From positions 209,445-273,444 of the forward strand of contig CACMAX010000001.1 of assembly GCA_902611845.1 (NCBI GenBank): DNA of 64,000 bases, read 5' to 3'. Below are positions 14,857-37,649 of the stretch, in pieces (the stretch's first letter is position 1; every line of letters begins with the position of its first letter). A program made the position numbers and the translations under genes. Source of the stretch: an uncultured Pelagibacteraceae bacterium (lineage in GTDB: Bacteria > Pseudomonadota > Alphaproteobacteria > Pelagibacterales > Pelagibacteraceae). Under the pieces are notes generated by a model. The model worked only from the letters and a program-made list of their open reading frames with translations, was not told the origin of the DNA and did not search any database.

Positions 14857-15638
14857 TGAAAAGAATTCTTATAGTTGAAGGTAATCTTAGAGAAGAAAAT
14901 CAAAGCTTTACTGATGGTGGAATTAAAACACATACTGAAAGTTTAAAAGATAGTATTAGTTATTTTACAGATCAATTAGATATTGATGTTGTAAATCCTT
15001 CATCTGATGAAAATATTAGTGAAGTAGCTAAAGATTTAACTAAATATAATGGAATGATATGGGGCGGTAGTAGTTTAAATATTTACAATGATACTCCAGA
15101 AATAAGAAGACAAATAAACTTTATGAGGGAATGTCAAAAGAATATAAAAAATATATTTGCAATATGTTGGGGAATGCAAGTTGCTGTAACTGTTGCTGGT
15201 GGTGAAGTAAAGAAATGCCCCATTGGTGCACATAGGGGAATAGCTCATGACATAGAAATAAACGAAAACGGCCTTAAACATCCGCTTTATAAAAATAAAA
15301 ATAAAAAATTTAATACCCCTGCGTTTAATTTTGATGAGGTTGTAAAATTACCTGAGGGCTCTACATTACTTTCATCAAACCCAATAAATAAAGTCATGGG
15401 TATAAATTTTAACGTTGGTCAAACCAATGTATGGGGAATTCAATATCACCCAGAGATAACTTATGCCAAAATGATAAGCTTAATTCATTTTAGGAAAGAT
15501 CGACTGTTAGAAAAAAAAGCCTTTATTGACCAAATGGAAATAGACTCTCATGTAAAAATTATAGAAGAAGAAAATAAAATTTCTAATAAAGATGCAAGGA
15601 TGAAAGAATTAGAAAATTGGCTAAATAACTTAAATTAG
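14856..15638 (+). CDS. Class I glutamine amidotransferase-like protein (possible gamma-glutamyl hydrolase)
   Basis: Oxyanion GGSS, nucleophile ICWGMQ and QYHPE (Cys-His-Glu triad). Confidence 0.85.
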
Positions 15639-17314
15639 AATAAGCCTTCTATTTCACCTTTTTCATTAAGCTTAATAGAGTCTGCTGCAGGAACTCTTGG
15701 AAGTCCAGGCATTGTCATGATGGCTCCACATATAACAACAATAAATTCTGCACCTGAAGATAATCTTACTTCTCTAATTGGTAATGAGTGACCTGTTGGA
15801 GCACCTTTTGCATTTGGATCAGTAGAAAAACTATATTGTGTTTTAGCTACACATATCGGTAAATTTCCATAACCCGCTTCTTCAAAAGATTTTAATTGAT
15901 CTTTTATTTTACTGTCAGCAACAACTTCGTTTGCTCGATAAATTTCTTTTGCAACAGTCTCAACTTTCTTCAACAAAGGTGTTTTTTCATCATATAAAAA
16001 TTTAAAATTTCCTTTTTTTTGATCAATTAAATCTACGACATGTGAAGCAAGTTCTTTTGTTCCTTCACCACCATTTGACCAATGAGTGCATAAAGTAGCT
16101 TTAACTCCCATATTATCACAAGCATTTATTAACTCTTTCACTTCATTATCAGTATCTGCAACAAAATGATTAACAGCAACCGCTACCGGTAAACTAAATT
16201 TTTTTACGTTTTCAATGTGTCTTTCTAAATTTACTAAACCTTTTTTTAACGCGTCTACATTTTCATTTTTTAAATCATCTTTAGCTACACCACCGTGCAT
16301 TTTTAATGCTCTAATTGTTGCAACAATAACTACACACTCAGGTTTTAAATTTGATTTTCTACATTTAATATCTAAAAATTTTTCTGCTCCAAGGTCTGCT
16401 CCAAATCCAGCTTCAGTTACAACATAATCTGCTAGTTTTAAACCTGCTTTAGTTGCTATTACAGAGTTACAACCGTGCGCAATGTTTGCAAAAGGACCAC
16501 CATGAATAATTGCTGGATTATTTTCTAACGTTTGAGTTACGTTAGGCCTGATTGCTTCCTTTAATAAAACAGTCATTGGTCCGTGAGCATTTAAATCTTT
16601 TGCAAAAATAGGCTTTCTATCTCTTGTATAAGCAACTGTAATATTACCGATTCTCTTTTCCAAATCTCCCAGATCATTTGCTAAACAAAAGATAGCCATT
16701 ATCTCAGATGCTACCGTAATATCAAAACCGTCTTCTCTTGGAAAACCATTAGCAACTCCACCTAAATTAATATTGATAGATCTTAAAGATCTATCATTCA
16801 TATCCATAACTCTTCTCCAAACTACTCTTCTTACATCTATATTTAATTTATTTCCCCAATAAATATGATTATCAATTAAGGCTGACAATAAATTGTGAGC
16901 CGATGTAATTGCATGGAAGTCTCCCGTAAAATGTAAATTGATTTGTTCCATTGGAACAACTTGAGCATATCCTCCACCTGCTGCTCCACCTTTCATTCCA
17001 AATGAAGGACCTAAACTAGGTTCACGTAAACACACTATAGAATTTTTACCAATTTTATTTAATCCATCATTTAAACCAACTGAAGTAGTAGTTTTTCCCT
17101 CCCCTGCAGGAGTTGGCGTAATAGCAGTAACTAAAATTAATTTTCCATTTTGTTTATCTTTTAAACTATCTAAATATTCTAAATTTATTTTAGCAATATG
17201 ACGTCCCATAGGGCTAAAAGCACTCGGTTCGTCTGGAACATTAATTTTACCCAAAATCTCATTTATGGGTTTCATTTTTGCTTCTCGTGCAATTTGGATA
17301 TCTGATTTTGACAT
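15635..17314 (-). CDS. fhs: Formate--tetrahydrofolate ligase
   Basis: [41 protein letters not shown]. Confidence 0.98.
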
Positions 17315-30624: not shown

Positions 30625-30784
30625 TAACTTTGAATATAAATCGGACAAATCAGATAAAAATGAATTAAATGATATTTGTGATGAATGTAAAAAAGAAGAT
30701 GAGACAGTAACTCAAAATTTAATACTCACAGGATATAAACTTTGTAACTCCTGCAGAACATCAAAAACTTTATTTCCACTTTAA
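30617..30784 (+). CDS. Small CxxC-x18-CxxC zinc-finger-like protein (55 aa), missing from the ORF track
   Basis: Hand translation MTDNFEYKSDKSDKNELNDICDECKKEDETVTQNLILTGYKLCNSCRTSKTLFPL. The start overlaps the upstream gene, and the TAA overlaps the stop of the convergent gene (TTAA). Confidence 0.7.
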   Translation: MTDNFEYKSDKSDKNELNDICDECKKEDETVTQNLILTGYKLCNSCRTSKTLFPL

Positions 30785-31326
30785 ATATTCGTACTAATAG
30801 GTAACGAATTAATTTTTGTCATTACGAAAGAAATTGTCAAAAAAGAAATAATTAAAAAAGACAAAAATACAATTCCAAATGCTTTTAAATTTGATTTTAA
30901 ATTTAAAATATGTCGTGTTGCAATGATTAATGAAGCAAAAATCCAAAATTGAGTAAGAAAAATAATTAAAAGCACTAATTCTGGCGTGACAGCAAAAAAT
31001 CTTATTAGTCCTGGAGCATGTGCGTACCCAACGGCTATAAGGACTCTTTTAAATGGAATTTTTCTATCTTTATCAGGAAAAATTTTAACTCCAATTACAA
31101 ATATAAAAATTGCCCATACCAGCCAAGTTAATAATGCTGTTAAACCAGATATACCAACAGACGTTTTAACAATTGTGTTCGCTGCAATAGCACCAGCAAC
31201 CCCATCTAAAATCATGATAAGAATTGCAAAATAAATTCCAGCTTCTCCATAATATCTTGGAGTTCTATAAAGAGTTTTATCAAGCTTTAACGATTTAAAA
31301 ACAATATCTAAAAACTGAGCAAACAT
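30781..31326 (-). CDS. YIP1-family membrane protein
   Basis: About five TM segments and the motif VGYAHAPGL. Confidence 0.65.
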   Translation of the reverse strand: MFAQFLDIVFKSLKLDKTLYRTPRYYGEAGIYFAILIMILDGVAGAIAANTIVKTSVGISGLTALLTWLVWAIFIFVIGVKIFPDKDRKIPFKRVLIAVGYAHAPGLIRFFAVTPELVLLIIFLTQFWIFASLIIATRHILNLKSNLKAFGIVFLSFLIISFLTISFVMTKINSLPISTNI

Positions 31327-31433
31327 TAATTATCTTTATTTTTTTTTTGCGCCTTATATGAAACGATTAATGGGAATATTATTAGAGCAATAGCGATTAT
31401 AATGCAAACAACTATGAAAAAGGTTTTCGTCAT
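31326..31433 (-). CDS. 35-aa single-pass membrane microprotein, missing from the ORF track
   Basis: Hand translation MTKTFFIVVCIIIAIALIIFPLIVSYKAQKKNKDN; its TAA overlaps the YIP1 ATG (TAATG). Confidence 0.6.
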   Translation of the reverse strand: MTKTFFIVVCIIIAIALIIFPLIVSYKAQKKNKDN

Positions 31434-31434
31434 A

Positions 31435-31461
31435 TTTAGGGGGAATTAAATTCCCCCTAAA
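31435..31461. terminator. 12-bp stem hairpin downstream of the aminomethyltransferase gene
   Basis: TTTAGGGGGAAT-TAA-ATTCCCCCTAAA; there is no U-tract 3' of it on the minus strand, so a terminator role is uncertain. Confidence 0.5.
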
Positions 31462-31471
31462 AAAATTTTTA

Positions 31472-32827
31472 TCACTTACTGACTACTTCTCTTGTATTTG
31501 CGTTGTAAGATTCTGTAAATGGAATATCAACTACAACTGCATCAACTGGTTCCCCAGGTTTATCAGAATATTTTTCTGGTAGATGGACTTTAAATTTCGA
31601 TCCAACTTTACCTCTTGGAAAACCATTTGCATTTAGCGTGCCATCAAATGGAACATATCCCATAGCAATATTTTTCCCCTTTTCTGGGTGATACCATGGA
31701 GAAGTTATAAATCCTACAGGCTCACTGCCGTTTTCTGAAATTAACCAAAAATCTGGAGCATATTCTTCAATAGGTTTTCCTCCTAATTCAAGTCCAACTA
31801 ATTGAAGTTTGTAAGGTTTATGACCTGCTTTTAAATCAGCTTTCATTTTCTCGAGAGCTTTTTTACCAATGTAATCTGCTTTTTTGTTCCATTCACCTTT
31901 ACCAGATAAAGAAACTTGATATCCAAGATTACATTGAAATGGATTATGCTCATGATCCATATCTTGTCCCCATGAAAGAATTCCAGCTTGTATCCTTCTA
32001 TGGTGTGCAGGAGCAATTACCATTAAGTTATGTTTTTTACCTGCTTCAAGAACAGCATTCCACATATCTTCGGCATATAAAGTTGCTTCTCTTAAATATA
32101 TTTCAAATCCAGACTCGCCTGAAAAACCTGTTTGAGAAATTATACAACTTCTTCCACCAACTTTTGCAGAAGCCAATCCATAAAAAGGCATGTTATCAAT
32201 ATCAACTTCACTTCCACAAAGATCTTTCATCAAAGCTTTTGCTTTAGGACCTTGAATTTGTACAGGACAAGCATCTATTTCATTAATTTGAACATTAAAC
32301 CTTTCATCTGCATTTACTCCTTGCAGATATAATCCTATATCACTATCTGATAAACTAAACCAAAATTCATCTTTAGAAATTCTTAAAAGAATAGGATCAT
32401 TTAATACTCCTCCATAAGAATTACACAAAATTACATATCTTCCTCTCATTGGAGAAATTTTTGTAGCATCTCTTGTAATTACATAATCAACAAATTTTTC
32501 TGCATCTGGTCCTTTAACTTGTATTTGTCTTTCAACTGCAACATTCCACATTGTTACATGGTTTTTAATTGCTTCGTACTCAACCATTGCACCACCATCT
32601 TCAGGTTTAACATAACCTCTTGGATGATAAATTCTGTTATAAACAGTTGCTCTCCAACATCCTGCTTTCATAGATAAATGCCAGTATGGAGATTTCCTTA
32701 CTCTTGTTGATATTAGCATCTCAACTTTAGTAGGTCCGCTTTGTCTCAAATTATATGGTACTTTTCTATCAGACTGATCTACTGATGTTGTATGTCTTAG
32801 TTTACTATAGTCAAATTCATTAGACAT
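31472..32827 (-). CDS. GcvT-family THF-dependent aminomethyltransferase/demethylase (DmdA/LigM-like, substrate unknown)
   Basis: TRVRKSPY, MWNVAVERQ, NDPILLR, QTGFSGESGFEIY, RRIQAGILSWGQD, NPFQCNLG. Confidence 0.88.
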   Translation of the reverse strand: MSNEFDYSKLRHTTSVDQSDRKVPYNLRQSGPTKVEMLISTRVRKSPYWHLSMKAGCWRATVYNRIYHPRGYVKPEDGGAMVEYEAIKNHVTMWNVAVERQIQVKGPDAEKFVDYVITRDATKISPMRGRYVILCNSYGGVLNDPILLRISKDEFWFSLSDSDIGLYLQGVNADERFNVQINEIDACPVQIQGPKAKALMKDLCGSEVDIDNMPFYGLASAKVGGRSCIISQTGFSGESGFEIYLREATLYAEDMWNAVLEAGKKHNLMVIAPAHHRRIQAGILSWGQDMDHEHNPFQCNLGYQVSLSGKGEWNKKADYIGKKALEKMKADLKAGHKPYKLQLVGLELGGKPIEEYAPDFWLISENGSEPVGFITSPWYHPEKGKNIAMGYVPFDGTLNANGFPRGKVGSKFKVHLPEKYSDKPGEPVDAVVVDIPFTESYNANTREVVSK

Positions 32828-33548
32828 AGTTATTCTCCTTCAACCACTTGTTAGTTTCCTTCAAGCCGCCGAATGTATAAATGTGGAAATAATCAGTATG
32901 CGATTTAACTTTCCCAATTAAATCATTAGGGTCTTTAGGTTTCAATAAATCCAACGCCTTACTAAAATTAGATTTAAGAAAGTTAATGGAATTTTTTGCC
33001 CCTACAATATTAGCAAATTTAATTAAGCTAGATATTTTCATTGGCCCAGTTATTCCAACATGAACTGGTATTGTTTGTTTTGAGATAAAATCTATAATAG
33101 GCTGAGTATCCATTAGCCACTGTGTAACTATATAATCAGCATAAGGCTTTTTATCTATCATAGCTTTTTCTAAATCAGAGTCGGATATATCAGGACTCCC
33201 CTCGGGATGTCCAGCAATTCCAATCTTGATACCATCAAAAAACCCTGTCTCAAGCATTTGATATGAGCTATCAAATTTTCCGATTGGGTCACGACTTCCG
33301 CCTATCACCAAGACCTGCTTAACACCCAAATCTTTACATCTAGAAACATAATCTTTCAGCTGATTTTCATTATTTATTGACCTTGCAGGGAAGTGAGGAA
33401 CTGGATTAAATCCCTCTTTAACTAACTCCCCAGACTGTTGAGCTGTCTCTTTATAATCACCTCCAGGTAGCATTGTAACATAAACATCTTTTACCTTTGG
33501 CAACGTGCTTAAATCAGTTTTAGGACCTATTTCTAAAGAAAAATTCAT
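32820..33548 (-). CDS. metF: Short methylenetetrahydrofolate reductase-family flavoprotein
   Basis: PVPHFPAR, LVIGG, GIAGHPEG, IVTQ, HIYTFGG; 242 aa; overlaps the AMT start. Confidence 0.82.
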   Translation of the reverse strand: MNFSLEIGPKTDLSTLPKVKDVYVTMLPGGDYKETAQQSGELVKEGFNPVPHFPARSINNENQLKDYVSRCKDLGVKQVLVIGGSRDPIGKFDSSYQMLETGFFDGIKIGIAGHPEGSPDISDSDLEKAMIDKKPYADYIVTQWLMDTQPIIDFISKQTIPVHVGITGPMKISSLIKFANIVGAKNSINFLKSNFSKALDLLKPKDPNDLIGKVKSHTDYFHIYTFGGLKETNKWLKENNYV

Positions 33549-33652
33549 AAGTAAATTCTTAATTATTTTATATTCCGTGTCTATAAAAATATTAAACAGC
33601 TGAACACATTGTAACCCATTGTCATGATCTGAAAATTTAATTAAATTTAGTC

Positions 33653-34870
33653 ATGGAAAATAAATTATCTCAAATTACAGAATTATTCTCCAAAACAAGA
33701 CAACAAACTCTATCCCTGTGCGAGAACTTAGAGGCTGAGGATATGGTCATACAGCCCAGTAAAAATGTCAGTCCTCTTAAGTGGCATCTTGGTCACACCA
33801 CATGGTTCTTCGAAAAATTCATCTTGTCAGAATTGGATGAAAGTTACAAACCTTTTAACAAAGATTACAATTACATATTTAATTCGTATTATAATTCTGT
33901 GGGTGAGTACAATCCTCGAAATAAGAGAGGTTCACTAAATAGACCCATCTTAAAAGATGTTGTAAAATATAGACACTATGTAACTGAAAATATTATTGAT
34001 TTTTTAAAAAGGACAAAAAATAACAGGACATCATTTTTAGTTGAACTAGGTTCAAATCACGAACAACAGCATCAAGAATTAATGTTAATGGATATTAAAA
34101 ATATTTTTTACAATAATCCATTGATGCCGACTTATAATTCTAACGATGATAAACCAACTGCTAAAGAAGAAAATGAATTGACATTAGAAACTAGTAAAAA
34201 ATTTAAATATGGAAACAACGAGGATATTTTTTGTTACGATAACGAATTACCAGTATCAGAAATACAATTAGATCCTTTTAAAATATATTCATTTGTTACC
34301 AATGGAGAGTGGAAAGAATTCATTAATGATGGAGGATATAAAAACCATGAGTATTGGTTATCTGATGGATGGGATTTTGTAAATAATAACAAATTACAAA
34401 AACCAATGTATTGGATAGATAATAACAATTATTTTACATTAAATGGTGTAAAAAAAATTGATAATGAAAAGCCAGTTTCTCATATAAGTTTCTATGAAGC
34501 AGATGCATTTGCAAGATACAAAAACAAAAGATTACCAACTGAATTTGAACTAGAGTATTTTTTAAAACAATCTAAGAAAAAAGGTAATTTTTTAGAAAAT
34601 AAAATTTTCCGTGAAGTGGAAGAAAAAGCAGACGATGTTTATGGAAATTTATGGGCTTGGACAAGTAGTAATTACACACCTTACAAAAAATACAAACCTT
34701 ATGAAGGAAATCTAGGAGAATATAATAATAAGTTCATGTGCAATCAGTTTGTCTTAAAAGGCGGCTCACATTCTACGTCTATTAATCATGTCAGAGCATC
34801 TTATAGAAATTTCTTTTACCCAAGTGATACTTGGCAGTTTTGTGGCGTCAGACTAGCTGATGACATCTAG
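33653..34870 (+). CDS. egtB: Ergothioneine sulfoxide synthase EgtB (DinB_2 + FGE-sulfatase domains)
   Basis: SPLKWHLGHTTWFFE, FNSYY, HEQQHQEL (3-His Fe triad), YNNKFM, RASYRNFF. Confidence 0.92.
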   Translation: MENKLSQITELFSKTRQQTLSLCENLEAEDMVIQPSKNVSPLKWHLGHTTWFFEKFILSELDESYKPFNKDYNYIFNSYYNSVGEYNPRNKRGSLNRPILKDVVKYRHYVTENIIDFLKRTKNNRTSFLVELGSNHEQQHQELMLMDIKNIFYNNPLMPTYNSNDDKPTAKEENELTLETSKKFKYGNNEDIFCYDNELPVSEIQLDPFKIYSFVTNGEWKEFINDGGYKNHEYWLSDGWDFVNNNKLQKPMYWIDNNNYFTLNGVKKIDNEKPVSHISFYEADAFARYKNKRLPTEFELEYFLKQSKKKGNFLENKIFREVEEKADDVYGNLWAWTSSNYTPYKKYKPYEGNLGEYNNKFMCNQFVLKGGSHSTSINHVRASYRNFFYPSDTWQFCGVRLADDI

Positions 34871-35832
34871 TGACTAATTTAAAATTAATAAACATAAACA
34901 ATCAAATTCAAGATGATAAAAAATTAATCTTACAAGGATTATTAAATAAAAAACAAAAATATTTACTACCTAAATATTTTTATGATGAAAAAGGTTCGAA
35001 GTTATTTAATAAAATTACAAACCTTAAAGAATATTACCCAACAAACAAAGAGTTAGAAATACTAGGTAGTTCACAAAAAGAGATAAGAAAGAAATTACCA
35101 ATTAATTCAACAATTGTAGAATTTGGTAGTGGCTCAAATAAAAAAATTAATAAATTTATAAATTCATTAAGTGAACCCAAAGAATATATTCCTATAGATA
35201 TTAGTAAGGAATATTTGTTTGAAAATGCATCGATAATTGCAAAAAAATTCTCAGATTTAAAGGTAACAGCAATATGTGCTGACTTTAGTCAGACCGATAG
35301 ATTAAATAAAATTTTAAAAAATAAAAAAAAAATAGTCAGTTTTTTTCCAGGATCGACCATAGGAAATTATTTACCCAAAAATGCAAAAAAAATATTAAAA
35401 AATTTTTCAAAAATCATAGGTAAAAATTCTTATTTAGTAATTGGGGTAGATTTAATAAAAAATAAGAAGACCCTTGAAAATGCTTACAATGATAAATCGG
35501 GAGTTACAGCAAAATTTAATAAAAATATATTAAATGTAGTAAACAAAATTTGTAATTCAAATTTTCAAACAAAAAATTTTGATCATAAAGCATTTTACAA
35601 TTTAAAAAAAAACAGAATTGAAATGCATCTTATTTCAAAGAAAAATTTCACGTTAAAAATTAATAAAAAGAATATTAAATTTACTAAAGATGAAACCATT
35701 CATACTGAAAATTCTCACAAATATTCAAAAAATAACTTTGTTAAATTAGTTAATAAATCTGGATTTAAAGTCTTAAAATATTTTGCAGATAAAAAAAATT
35801 ATTTTGGAGTTTTTTTGTTAAAAGTGAAGTAA
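34870..35832 (+). CDS. egtD: L-histidine N-alpha-trimethyltransferase EgtD
   Basis: PKYFYDEKGSKLF, EYYPT, EFGSGS, PIDIS, FPGSTIGN, AYND, HTENSHK; the GTG start overlaps the egtB stop. Confidence 0.92.
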   Translation: MTNLKLININNQIQDDKKLILQGLLNKKQKYLLPKYFYDEKGSKLFNKITNLKEYYPTNKELEILGSSQKEIRKKLPINSTIVEFGSGSNKKINKFINSLSEPKEYIPIDISKEYLFENASIIAKKFSDLKVTAICADFSQTDRLNKILKNKKKIVSFFPGSTIGNYLPKNAKKILKNFSKIIGKNSYLVIGVDLIKNKKTLENAYNDKSGVTAKFNKNILNVVNKICNSNFQTKNFDHKAFYNLKKNRIEMHLISKKNFTLKINKKNIKFTKDETIHTENSHKYSKNNFVKLVNKSGFKVLKYFADKKNYFGVFLLKVK

Positions 35833-35840
35833 GTTTTATT

Positions 35841-36470
35841 ATGGCTCAAAAAGACGTAGGTAACAAAATTCCCATTTATAAGTTAAAAGACACCGATGAA
35901 GTGATGAAATATTACGATGAATGGGGAGATGGTAATAAATATGATAAGGATATGGTCGATTGGAATTATACAGGACCAAAAGAAACAACAAAAGTATTTT
36001 CAGAATTCCAAAAAAACAAAGACGCAAAAATTTATGATGCTGGTTGTGGAACTGGATTGGTGGGTGTTGAATTAAAAAAATATGGTTTTAAAAATTTTCA
36101 TGGGGCAGATCTTTCAAAAAAGTTATTAGAATTAGTACCAAATGATCTTTATGAAAAGCTTGAACAAGTAGACTTGAATAAACCCATTAATAAAAAAGAT
36201 GACGAATATGACTCTGTTATGTGTGTTGGTACATTTACTTTTGGACATGTAAAGCCACCAGCTTTGGAGGAATTTATCAGGATTACAAAGAATAATGGAT
36301 TTATCTGTTTTACTATTAATGAGGGAATACATGAAGAATATGGTTTTGATAAAAAAATTGAGCAACTTAAAGAGCAAAATAAATGGAAAGAAATAAAATT
36401 TTTTAAATCAGATTACATTGCGAGCAAAGACGTAAATGCTTGGTTAGGGTTATATCAAGTGATAAAATAA
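35841..36470 (+). CDS. Class I SAM-dependent methyltransferase, substrate unknown
   Basis: Motif I IYDAGCGTGLVG, GADLS, CVGTFTFGHV. Confidence 0.88.
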   Translation: MAQKDVGNKIPIYKLKDTDEVMKYYDEWGDGNKYDKDMVDWNYTGPKETTKVFSEFQKNKDAKIYDAGCGTGLVGVELKKYGFKNFHGADLSKKLLELVPNDLYEKLEQVDLNKPINKKDDEYDSVMCVGTFTFGHVKPPALEEFIRITKNNGFICFTINEGIHEEYGFDKKIEQLKEQNKWKEIKFFKSDYIASKDVNAWLGLYQVIK

Positions 36471-36473
36471 ACC

Positions 36474-37649
36474 ATGTCAGAAATTTACAATATTATAGAT
36501 AAACAAAAGTTAGATATTGTATCTAAACCAATTAGTGAAGCTCATGGTTTACCAAATGAATGCTACATCAGTAAAGAATATACTTTAATTGAAAGAAAAA
36601 AATTATTTGAAGATAAGTGGATCGTCATTGGAGTTGGAAGTTCTATTCCAGATGAAGGTGATGTGAAACCAATTGATTTACTTGGAATACCCTTACTTAT
36701 TGTTAGAACAAAAAATAAAGAAATAAAAGTTTTTCATAATATTTGTAGTCATAGAGGAGTTAAATTAGTTAAAGAAGCTGGCAAAATTAGAAATGTTATG
36801 AGGTGCTCATATCATTCATGGTCATATGACTTAGAAGGAAAATTAGTAGCTACACCTCATATAGGAGGCATGAATATTCATCAAACACCTGAATTTGATA
36901 AATCAAAAAGTAATTTAAAAGAGATAAGATCATATATTTGGTTAGATCTAATTATGATTAACATTAACAACAATGAAATTTCATTTGAGGATTATATCAG
37001 TCCTTTAAGTCAAAGATGGGAAAAATTTTGGCCCTTAAAAGATAGAGAATTAATTTATCATGCAAATGATTATGGTTATTTTAAATTAGATGCAAAATGT
37101 AATTGGAAATTTGCAATTGAAAATTATTGTGAAAGCTATCATTTGCCTTGGGTTCATCCAGGATTAAATTCTTATTCAAAGTTAGAAGATCACTATCATA
37201 TTCAAGGTCTTCCAAATCGTTTCGCCGGACAAGGAACAGTGGTCTACAATCCAAGGTTTGAAGGAAAAGAAAAATTTCCTTGCTTTCCTAACTGGCCAAA
37301 AGATAAGGAAAATATAGCTGAGTATGTAGCACTATTTCCAAATGTTATGTTAGGAATTCACAAAGATCATTATTATGCTTATTGGTTAGAGCCAATCAAT
37401 CATGAGCTTACAGTAGAACATATGGAAATTTATTATGTTGGAGATGAAGCGGCAACTTCAACAAAGTATAAAACTTTAAGACAAAAAAATCACAAACAAT
37501 GGGAAGACATTCAAAAAGAAGATGTAGATATAATTCAAAGTATGCAAATAGGCAGAAACTCACCAGCTTATAATGGTGGTAATTTTTCTCCAAAGATGGA
37601 CAATCCAACACATCATTTTCATAAGTGGGTTGCTGGTAATTTAATTTAA
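36474..37649 (+). CDS. Rieske non-heme iron oxygenase alpha subunit (choline monooxygenase/betaine demethylase-like)
   Basis: Rieske motifs CSHRG and CSYHSW; mononuclear site NWKFAIENYCESYHLPWVHP and EDVD. Confidence 0.9.
   Translation: MSEIYNIIDKQKLDIVSKPISEAHGLPNECYISKEYTLIERKKLFEDKWIVIGVGSSIPDEGDVKPIDLLGIPLLIVRTKNKEIKVFHNICSHRGVKLVKEAGKIRNVMRCSYHSWSYDLEGKLVATPHIGGMNIHQTPEFDKSKSNLKEIRSYIWLDLIMININNNEISFEDYISPLSQRWEKFWPLKDRELIYHANDYGYFKLDAKCNWKFAIENYCESYHLPWVHPGLNSYSKLEDHYHIQGLPNRFAGQGTVVYNPRFEGKEKFPCFPNWPKDKENIAEYVALFPNVMLGIHKDHYYAYWLEPINHELTVEHMEIYYVGDEAATSTKYKTLRQKNHKQWEDIQKEDVDIIQSMQIGRNSPAYNGGNFSPKMDNPTHHFHKWVAGNLI

Follow-up and report, generated by a model that had tools for sequence, protein, structure and literature searches.

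Which methylated compound is demethylated by an aminomethyltransferase that, in SAR11 bacteria, is encoded directly beside a short metF? We addressed this question in a 64,000-nucleotide stretch of DNA (the window; G+C ~30%) from an uncultured Pelagibacteraceae bacterium – positions 209,445 to 273,444 of contig CACMAX010000001.1 in assembly GCA_902611845.1. Two minus-strand open reading frames (ORFs), one encoding a 242-aa homolog of methylenetetrahydrofolate reductase (MTHFR) and the other a 451-aa aminomethyltransferase (AMT), fill positions 31472-33548 exactly as an initial annotation of the letters had placed them. That annotation proposed an orphan tetrahydrofolate (THF)-dependent demethylase, paired with a catabolic-type MetF, that would produce methyl-THF from an S-, N- or O-methyl compound. 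The window belongs to a SAR11 genome, as the first of its proteins searched match thousands of Pelagibacter sequences. Our analysis suggests that the two-gene unit probably couples an onium-methyl:THF methyltransferase, whose most likely substrate is glycine betaine, to oxidation of the methyl-THF formed. The class of chemistry – DmdA-type transfer of an onium methyl group to THF, followed by oxidation of the methyl-THF – can be predicted with considerable confidence, and for glycine betaine as the substrate we estimate a chance even or somewhat better.

The gene pair itself has been known since 2011. Sun et al. 2011 (PMC3160333) described a putative metF in HTCC1062, SAR11_1264, next to a DmdA-like aminomethyltransferase with no assigned substrate, SAR11_1265, and speculated that SAR11_1265 demethylates methylmercaptopropionate (MMPA). 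SAR11_1264 and SAR11_1265 are also listed together by Smith et al. 2016 (PMC5069961), and their mRNAs both drop ~5- to 10-fold in the same table columns. Our literature search returned no further paper that names either gene. The pair in the window matches the description of the HTCC1062 locus; this equivalence is based on the published account and on SAR11 homologs that are 85-93% identical. The 2011 publication is one point that goes beyond the initial annotation, as are the identification of the short MetF as the only MTHFR homolog found in the genome and a genomic context that narrows the likely substrate to a betaine.

A DmdA-fold enzyme and its MTHFR partner

We compared the AMT to characterized relatives. 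It contains Pfam GCV_T (141.7 bits) and GCV_T_C domains, and its NCBIfam scores fall below the cut-offs of the DmdA model (NF009133; 239.5 versus an equivalog cut-off of 410), the GcvT models (159.3 versus 300, 138 versus 235.85, and 123 versus 459), and the LigM/DesA models (36.7 versus 580 for NF047885, LigM, and 42.8 versus 800). The ten nearest-neighbor sequences tested all score under the DmdA cut-off as well. A quick maximum-likelihood search on 72 sequences placed the AMT in a clade of its own, which we refer to as family X, apart from the DmdA clade; SH-aLRT support is 99 for each of the two. Family X is also far from a GcvT-like protein, from the folate domains of DMGDH-, Sox- and Tdm-like proteins, and from a 407-aa AMT. 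The initial annotation had stated that the AMT is not recognizably GcvT proper and had proposed a phylogeny as a check; the separate clade and the score of 159 against a GcvT cut-off of 300 agree with that statement, and the AMT falls outside the DmdA and GcvT clades alike.

An AlphaFold2 (AF2) model of the AMT has a pLDDT of 90.2, with values of only 53-75 in the N-terminal extension, and predicts the three-domain GcvT/DmdA fold. The top fold match is Pelagibacter ubique DmdA (3TFH; TMt 0.94, rmsd 2.2), and LigM matches with a TM of ~0.6. By sequence and predicted structure, the AMT is thus a member of a distinct and strongly conserved DmdA-fold family outside the DmdA, GcvT and LigM groups.

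We assigned proteins to family X on the basis of an N-terminal motif, a Y-H-P-R-x-Y-x-x-x-E-x-G-G insertion and an identity of 50% or more along almost their whole length, and the AMT displays all three. The N-terminal motif reads R-x-V-P-x-N/Q-L-R-Q-S/T-G, and R21, V23, P24, L27, R28, Q29, S30 and G31 are invariant in a 10-sequence alignment. A Haloarcula copy keeps the motif, with Q29-T in place of Q29-S. Together with the PEDGG insertion and a C-terminal tail, this motif is a family X signature that DmdA-like relatives lack. The ~40-aa N-terminal extension reported in the initial annotation is present: in the alignment with P. ubique DmdA, residue 40 falls opposite residue 9, giving an extension of ~30-40 aa within which the motif is conserved.

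In a sample of 300 genomes from ~200 alphaproteobacterial families, 12 encode an ortholog with 50-86% identity to the AMT. Identity reaches 86% in a second alphaproteobacterial family sampled and 70% in HIMB59; several genomes of 2.5-5.7 Mb encode copies at 63-68%, and values for a second subgroup are 50-54%. We also identified family X on 16 haloarchaeal megaplasmids (52-59% amino-acid identity) – one copy is at 226332-227708 of Haloarcula hispanica pHH400, and 15 other haloarchaeal megaplasmids have one likewise. The haloarchaeal gene shares ~70% nucleotide identity with an alphaproteobacterial copy. Sequence comparison suggests that family X has been transferred between the domains Bacteria and Archaea.

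The 242-aa partner is a weak match to Pfam MTHFR (PF02219; 25.5 bits versus a cut-off of 24). Against solved structures, it matches S6MTHFR from Sphingobium SYK-6 (PDB 7XG9/7XLF) with an E value of 1.6e-31, and the next solved MTHFRs have E values of about 0.01. An AF2 model built from 31 homologs (pLDDT 90.2) forms a complete eight-stranded barrel despite the shortness of the protein. The best Foldseek matches are again 7XG9/7XLF (TMq 0.86-0.87, 31% identity), with the other solved MTHFRs listed at TMq 0.65-0.79 and 13-20% identity. These results accord with two claims of the initial annotation. The MetF is short and carries the PHxxAR and GHPEG motifs (PHFPAR at residues 51-56 and GHPEG at 113-117), and its assignment to a catabolic type is supported by the closest sequence and predicted fold being those of S6MTHFR, a component of the ligM-metF-ligH system that the annotation had cited.

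According to Yu et al. 2025 (PMC11868366), CH3-THF is oxidized by S6MTHFR, which shows little activity with NADH. Its reported determinants are a Leu48-Pro49 pair that blocks NADH, Phe215 and Cys219 on helix alpha-8, and a Y-P-F-G-G loop, and ‘type 4’ MTHFRs accompany THF-dependent demethylases (PMC11868366). SAR11 and DmdA are absent from the main text of that paper. In the SAR11 protein, V-T25-M-L27-P28-G aligns with V-T46-F-L48-P49-G of S6MTHFR, and P28 and G29 are near-invariant in the 31 homologs. Phe215 corresponds to F178, and the catalytic Glu21 and Gln175 correspond to E6 and Q143, both invariant in the family alignment. Judged from its sequence, the SAR11 MetF belongs to the type-4 S6MTHFR family but has been trimmed and has diverged somewhat. 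It is predicted to be a methyl-THF oxidase; we infer its reaction direction, flavin adenine dinucleotide (FAD) cofactor and electron acceptor.

We next considered the sinks for methyl-THF. The 242-aa protein is the sole PF02219 match in the genome. In genome searches, no B12-binding domain scored above its cut-off, only one pterin-binding protein was identified, and the only trace of MetE was a weak and short MetE-like frame. This frame is outside the window (contig C10 9042-10064, plus strand), comprises 387 codons, and scores 60.9 bits to the MetE catalytic domain; it is far shorter than a full MetE and may encode a ‘core’ MetE-like protein. According to PMC12478193, SAR11 have neither MetH, MetE nor the split synthase. 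Because no other methyl-THF sink is evident in the genome, methyl-THF from DmdA or from the neighboring AMT would go to oxidation by the 242-aa MTHFR. As the only MTHFR homolog, this MetF would not be private to its AMT neighbor and probably also serves DmdA.

Neighborhoods and co-occurrence

To characterize the genomic context in SAR11, we read the best 80 loci of a genome scan, all of them from Pelagibacteraceae, in a collection with a single genome for each species. The MTHFR gene is upstream of the AMT gene with the same 8-nt overlap in 78 of these, which amounts to 78 of 78 testable loci given that the other two end at a contig edge. The pairing is far beyond chance. The initial annotation had described metF and the AMT gene as one overlapping unit, as we see in the window, and the overlap implies that the two genes are translationally coupled. 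Its proposal of a demethylase yielding methyl-THF is likewise consistent with this invariant coupling to an MTHFR gene.

The surroundings of the pair are constant on one side and variable on the other. Downstream, SAR11 loci have a hairpin, a small ORF and a Yip1-domain gene (77 of 80), followed by convergent homarine genes. The upstream flank is a variable slot. In ~38 of 80 loci, the two genes immediately upstream of the pair, in the same orientation, encode an OpuAC-type binding protein and a ProW/ChoW-type permease, with no ATPase gene beside them. A second homocysteine S-methyltransferase gene and a gene encoding an 801-aa DMGDH-family protein are divergent from the transporter genes in the same loci. 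In the present genome, the slot (33653-37649, plus strand) is occupied by egtB-egtD, a methyltransferase gene and a gene for a GbcA-like Rieske oxygenase.

We considered and rejected functional links between the pair and two of its neighbors. The published homarine pathway keeps the N-methyl group until N-methylglutamate, and the homarine cluster is convergent to the pair and beyond the hairpin and the Yip1-domain gene. A neighborhood with egtBD was found in only ~5 of 80 SAR11 loci.

Outside SAR11, family X is associated with genes for dimethylglycine and sarcosine oxidation. HIMB59 encodes soxBDAG, DMGDH, MTHFR and AMT in a row on one strand, and 8 of 13 non-SAR11 alphaproteobacterial loci adjoin a DMGDH-like gene, a sarcosine oxidase (sox) operon, or both. 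We read four haloarchaeal loci. An MTHFR gene is one to three genes from the AMT gene in all four (one haloarchaeal MTHFR was compared and shares 30% identity with the SAR11 protein), and three contain two DMGDH-like FAD oxidoreductases of ~850 aa. Genes for glyA, ilvA, a BCCT transporter, fhs, folD and formate dehydrogenase (fdhF) are nearby. Anderson et al. 2011 reported haloarchaeal dimethylglycine-oxidase genes beside BCCT transporters and named no first step. As annotated, these gene sets would spell out a path from betaine uptake through three demethylations and glycine to serine and pyruvate, with one-carbon oxidation alongside. The haloarchaeal islands look like complete betaine-to-pyruvate and one-carbon oxidation sets, and the DmdA-like enzyme appears to be the only candidate within them for the first demethylation.

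We then examined co-occurrence in the 300 alphaproteobacterial genomes. Family X is encoded by 12, type-4 MTHFR by 56, MttB/MtgB (PF06253) by 64 and a DMGDH marker (PF16350) by 96. (One of the 56 MTHFR holders is an unpublished genome that enters this count only and was kept out of alignments.) All 12 family X carriers encode PF16350 and none encodes PF06253. The 96 DMGDH holders divide into 62 with MttB, 12 with family X and 22 with neither, and in no case do the two occur together (Fisher p about 9e-7, uncorrected for phylogeny). MttB or family X is present in 48 of the 56 holders of type-4 MTHFR. The window's own family includes two sampled genomes without family X, in which the other three markers gave no match either. 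This pattern is as expected if family X and MtgBCD were alternative routes from betaine to methyl-THF ahead of DMGDH. Glycine betaine demethylation by MtgBCD with a dedicated MetF2 is experimentally supported in Ruegeria (PMC12478193).

A candidate betaine route and its alternatives

These observations led us to a candidate route. The AMT would move an activated methyl group from an onium osmolyte to N5 of THF – probably by redox-neutral transfer, as in DmdA. Acting on glycine betaine, it would release dimethylglycine with no need for cobalamin. The co-translated 242-aa flavoprotein would then oxidize 5-methyl-THF to 5,10-methylene-THF, and the methyl carbon would either be oxidized further via a presumed FolD, Fhs and a presumed formate dehydrogenase or be used for serine synthesis. 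The fhs gene is elsewhere in the window, as the initial annotation had noted. Dimethylglycine would pass to DMGDH-like and Sox-like enzymes, which the window also encodes. What the analysis shows is the anatomy of the pair, its family placements and predicted folds, the gene coupling, the neighborhoods and the co-occurrence pattern; the methyl-THF product and the substrate are predicted from these. Whether the assignment can be extended to family X as a whole – making it a cobalamin-independent glycine betaine:THF methyltransferase that works with type-4 MTHFR in SAR11, HIMB59, other Alphaproteobacteria and haloarchaea – is in our estimate an evenly balanced question.

Several observations weigh against a betaine-specific, MTHFR-coupled enzyme. 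The 242-aa protein departs from S6MTHFR at some determinants: Cys219 is replaced by V182, though most alphaproteobacterial homologs keep the Cys; the Y267-P268-F269-G-G loop is Y224-T225-F226-G-G, with Thr225 for Pro268; and the only nearby Asp, D87, is two positions after Asp107 in the HMMER alignment, in a column that depends on gap placement. Type-4 MTHFR is undetectable in 5 of the 12 non-SAR11 carriers of family X. The co-occurrence statistics are uncorrected for shared ancestry and, since PF06253 covers several quaternary-amine methyltransferases, the mutual exclusion does not single out glycine betaine. SAR11 and all other carriers encode homocysteine S-methyltransferase-domain proteins (PF02574), possibly including BHMT, in a search that does not separate BHMT from MetH or MmuM. 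A folate route for glycine betaine is thus not strictly required and may be redundant. A search for the GbcA family gave no match anywhere, its control included, and is uninformative. Finally, the betaine-transporter block is missing from this genome's locus, which is instead flanked by egtBD and the homarine cluster.

Some of these points bear on whether the same chemistry could serve another onium substrate, such as a DMSP (dimethylsulfoniopropionate) analog or other sulfonium, proline betaine, beta-alanine betaine, choline, carnitine/gamma-butyrobetaine, trigonelline or hercynine. DMSP, a sulfonium compound, is the substrate of the closest characterized relative of the AMT; transporters of the OpuAC and BCCT types accept many different onium solutes; and the MttB superfamily, with which family X is mutually exclusive, covers several quaternary amines. 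The pair is also beside egtBD – the product of EgtD, hercynine, is a trimethyl betaine – and near the GbcA-like Rieske oxygenase. However, the recurrent partners of family X are DMGDH-like proteins, sarcosine oxidase, glyA and ilvA, which together would take dimethylglycine via glycine and serine to pyruvate. The genome also already encodes two DmdA-class proteins, one scoring 530 bits, and the egtBD neighbors are a minority insertion. We therefore consider a different onium substrate unlikely, though it is an alternative to be kept in view. The specific suggestion of Sun et al. 2011, that the AMT removes the second DMSP methyl by converting MMPA to mercaptopropionate, draws on the AMT being a close paralog of dmdA that is about equally abundant in ocean metagenomes (PMC3160333). 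Family X is, however, also present in haloarchaea and large-genome Alphaproteobacteria, always with DMGDH-type enzymes, and dmdB, dmdC and dmdD were not seen in the annotated loci. The methyl group of a thioether, moreover, is not activated for transfer to THF. Taken together, these points make MMPA a highly improbable substrate.

Other explanations loosen the connection between the two genes. If the AMT resembled GcvT or the DMGDH folate domains in function, it would pick up the formaldehyde-level unit that a partner oxidase releases and convert it to 5,10-methylene-THF; the MTHFR gene would then be adjacent for another purpose, for example to serve DmdA. GcvT and DMGDH folate domains do share the fold of the AMT, the sole MTHFR found in the genome must also handle the methyl-THF produced by DmdA, and the 5 of 12 carriers without type-4 MTHFR fit such an arrangement. 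The invariant 8-nt coupling in SAR11 and the proximity of MTHFR in all four haloarchaeal loci argue otherwise, as does the grouping of family X with methyl-transferring DmdA-like enzymes rather than GcvT; DMGDH, Sox and Tdm proteins, in addition, bring their own folate domains. We regard methylene-THF capture as improbable. Alternatively, the 242-aa protein might be a trimmed biosynthetic MetF that reduces methylene-THF and is functionally unlinked to the AMT. NCBI annotates it as a plain methylenetetrahydrofolate reductase, and it keeps the invariant MTHFR Glu and Gln. Yet the genome has no evident methionine synthase that uses methyl-THF, the protein retains the Leu-Pro pair that blocks NADH in S6MTHFR, and the great majority of type-4 MTHFR holders (the 48 of 56 above) carry a methyl-THF-producing system. 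A biosynthetic role thus seems very unlikely, and onium-methyl transfer coupled to methyl-THF oxidation, with glycine betaine as the leading candidate substrate, is the reading we prefer.

Glycine betaine is a major nitrogen-containing osmolyte exchanged between phytoplankton and bacteria, and SAR11 oxidize its methyl groups to CO2. The first glycine betaine demethylation in marine bacteria was nonetheless called elusive in 2025, with a predicted BHMT as the only SAR11 route (PMC12478193). If the proposed function of this near-universal SAR11 pair is correct, family X would supply a route missing from current schemes, which assign SAR11 BHMT only, and would explain how betaine methyl groups yield energy in organisms without an evident cobalamin-dependent enzyme. 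Betaine turnover in the ocean could then be followed in metagenomes through a gene marker, and the ‘demethylase plus type-4 MTHFR’ design, known from lignin and dicamba degraders, would be shared by the most abundant marine heterotrophs and by haloarchaea. Even with another compound as the substrate, a function would be assigned to an enzyme that is abundant and highly conserved. The gene pair (2011) and the pairing of THF-dependent demethylases with type-4 MTHFRs (2025) were already known. Absent from the literature searched are the placement of the SAR11 MetF in type 4, the delineation of family X and its haloarchaeal spread, the mutual exclusion of family X and MttB, and the proposal of a corrinoid-free betaine:THF methyltransferase.

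Features of the locus and relation to known systems

The coordinates of the pair and of associated features are collected in Table 1.

Table 1. Features of the MTHFR-AMT locus, in window positions.
Feature	Position	Strand	Description
MTHFR-like gene	32820-33548	-	242 aa, type-4 (S6MTHFR-like), predicted methyl-THF oxidase
AMT gene	31472-32827	-	451 aa, DmdA-fold, family X, predicted onium-methyl:THF methyltransferase
Overlap of MTHFR stop and AMT start	32820..32827	-	8 nt, ATGTCTAA across the junction, read from sequence
N-terminal extension codons (AMT residues ~15-40)	32707..32785	-	family X motif SVDQSDRKVPYNLRQSGPT
Hairpin	31435..31461	.	perfect 12-bp palindrome, 10 nt past the AMT stop (consensus scan and sequence)
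Divergent intergenic region, MTHFR/egtB	33549..33652	.	104 nt, presumed promoter region of the pair
fhs	15638-17308 (contig coordinates 225082-226752)	-	

The hairpin is likely a terminator or attenuator that closes the two-gene unit. Its T-run is good on the plus strand and poor on the minus strand, and we infer its role for the AMT transcript. In the divergent intergenic region, we found promoter-like hexamers on the minus strand at 33583-33555 and 33635-33608, at a frequency no higher than in shuffled sequence. An Rfam search of the whole window identified no riboswitch or other RNA family.

An unannotated 35-aa ORF (31326-31433, minus strand; MTKTFFIVVCIIIAIALIIFPLIVSYKAQKKNKDN) begins directly past the hairpin. 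The encoded peptide comprises a single hydrophobic helix with a basic tail. In the sequence TAATG, the stop codon of the ORF (TAA) overlaps the start codon (ATG) of the Yip1-domain gene. Counterparts with conservative substitutions are present in at least 55 of 77 SAR11 loci. The Yip1-domain gene (30781-31326, minus strand) encodes a 181-aa membrane protein and follows the pair on the same strand; none was seen beside family X outside SAR11.

The description of the demethylase as an ‘orphan’ calls for qualification, as we identified eleven GCV_T-domain genes in the genome. These include two DmdA-class genes, another AMT, a GcvT-like gene (368 aa, contig C9, Pfam GCV_T 271.5), and genes for two DMGDH-like, two SoxA-like and one Tdm-like protein. 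One DmdA-class gene (contig C1, outside the window, minus strand) encodes 387 aa, scores 530.2 bits on the DmdA model, and adjoins genes for a thiolase and a 2-hydroxyacyl-CoA-lyase-like thiamine pyrophosphate (TPP) enzyme. The second encodes 369 aa on contig C5 and groups with the first in the tree. The further 407-aa AMT is at contig C1 175278-175925, outside the window. In another alphaproteobacterial genome, a different DmdA-like AMT (~41% identical) is encoded ~0.7 kb from a type-4 MTHFR gene, indicating that the demethylase-MTHFR pairing recurs with other members of the DmdA-like group.

The HTCC1062 SAR11_1264/SAR11_1265 pair is the closest parallel, with a metF homolog adjoining a DmdA-like AMT; the window appears to contain the same locus from another SAR11 lineage, with a different upstream flank (egtBD, methyltransferase, Rieske oxygenase). 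At the protein level, DmdA is the nearest characterized sequence relative of the AMT and shares its three-domain GcvT fold. The AMT differs in belonging to a separate clade (26-32% identity) and in having a ~30-aa N-terminal extension with an invariant motif, the PEDGG insertion, the C-terminal tail and lineage-specific insertions, and its neighbors are those of a glycine betaine pathway rather than a DMSP pathway.

Like S6MTHFR, the SAR11 MTHFR is predicted to combine a TIM barrel with a TxLPG loop containing Leu-Pro, the alpha-8 Phe, a Y-x-F-G-G loop and the Glu and Gln residues, and it is paired with a THF-dependent demethylase. It is ~46 residues shorter (242 versus 288) with a trimmed N-terminus and loops, is 31% identical, and has Val for Cys219, Thr for Pro268 and the Asp two positions off. 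Its partner is a DmdA-fold enzyme, whereas type-4 partners are LigM/DesA, CmuAB or Dmt. The LigM-MetF-LigH system has the same overall logic as the one proposed here – a GcvT-fold demethylase giving methyl-THF, a MetF that oxidizes methyl-THF, and formyl-THF metabolism – though LigM is a distant relative of the AMT and its substrates are aryl methyl ethers.

A functional counterpart of the proposed route is MtgBCD with MetF2 in Ruegeria pomeroyi, in which glycine betaine and THF are converted to dimethylglycine and methyl-THF and a dedicated MetF paralog follows, as we propose for family X. Both systems are linked to DMGDH genes, and they are mutually exclusive in the sampled genomes. MtgBCD consists of an MttB-type TIM-barrel methyltransferase, a corrinoid protein and a pterin methyltransferase, needs cobalamin, and is unrelated to family X, in which a single DmdA-fold protein would carry out the transfer without a corrinoid.

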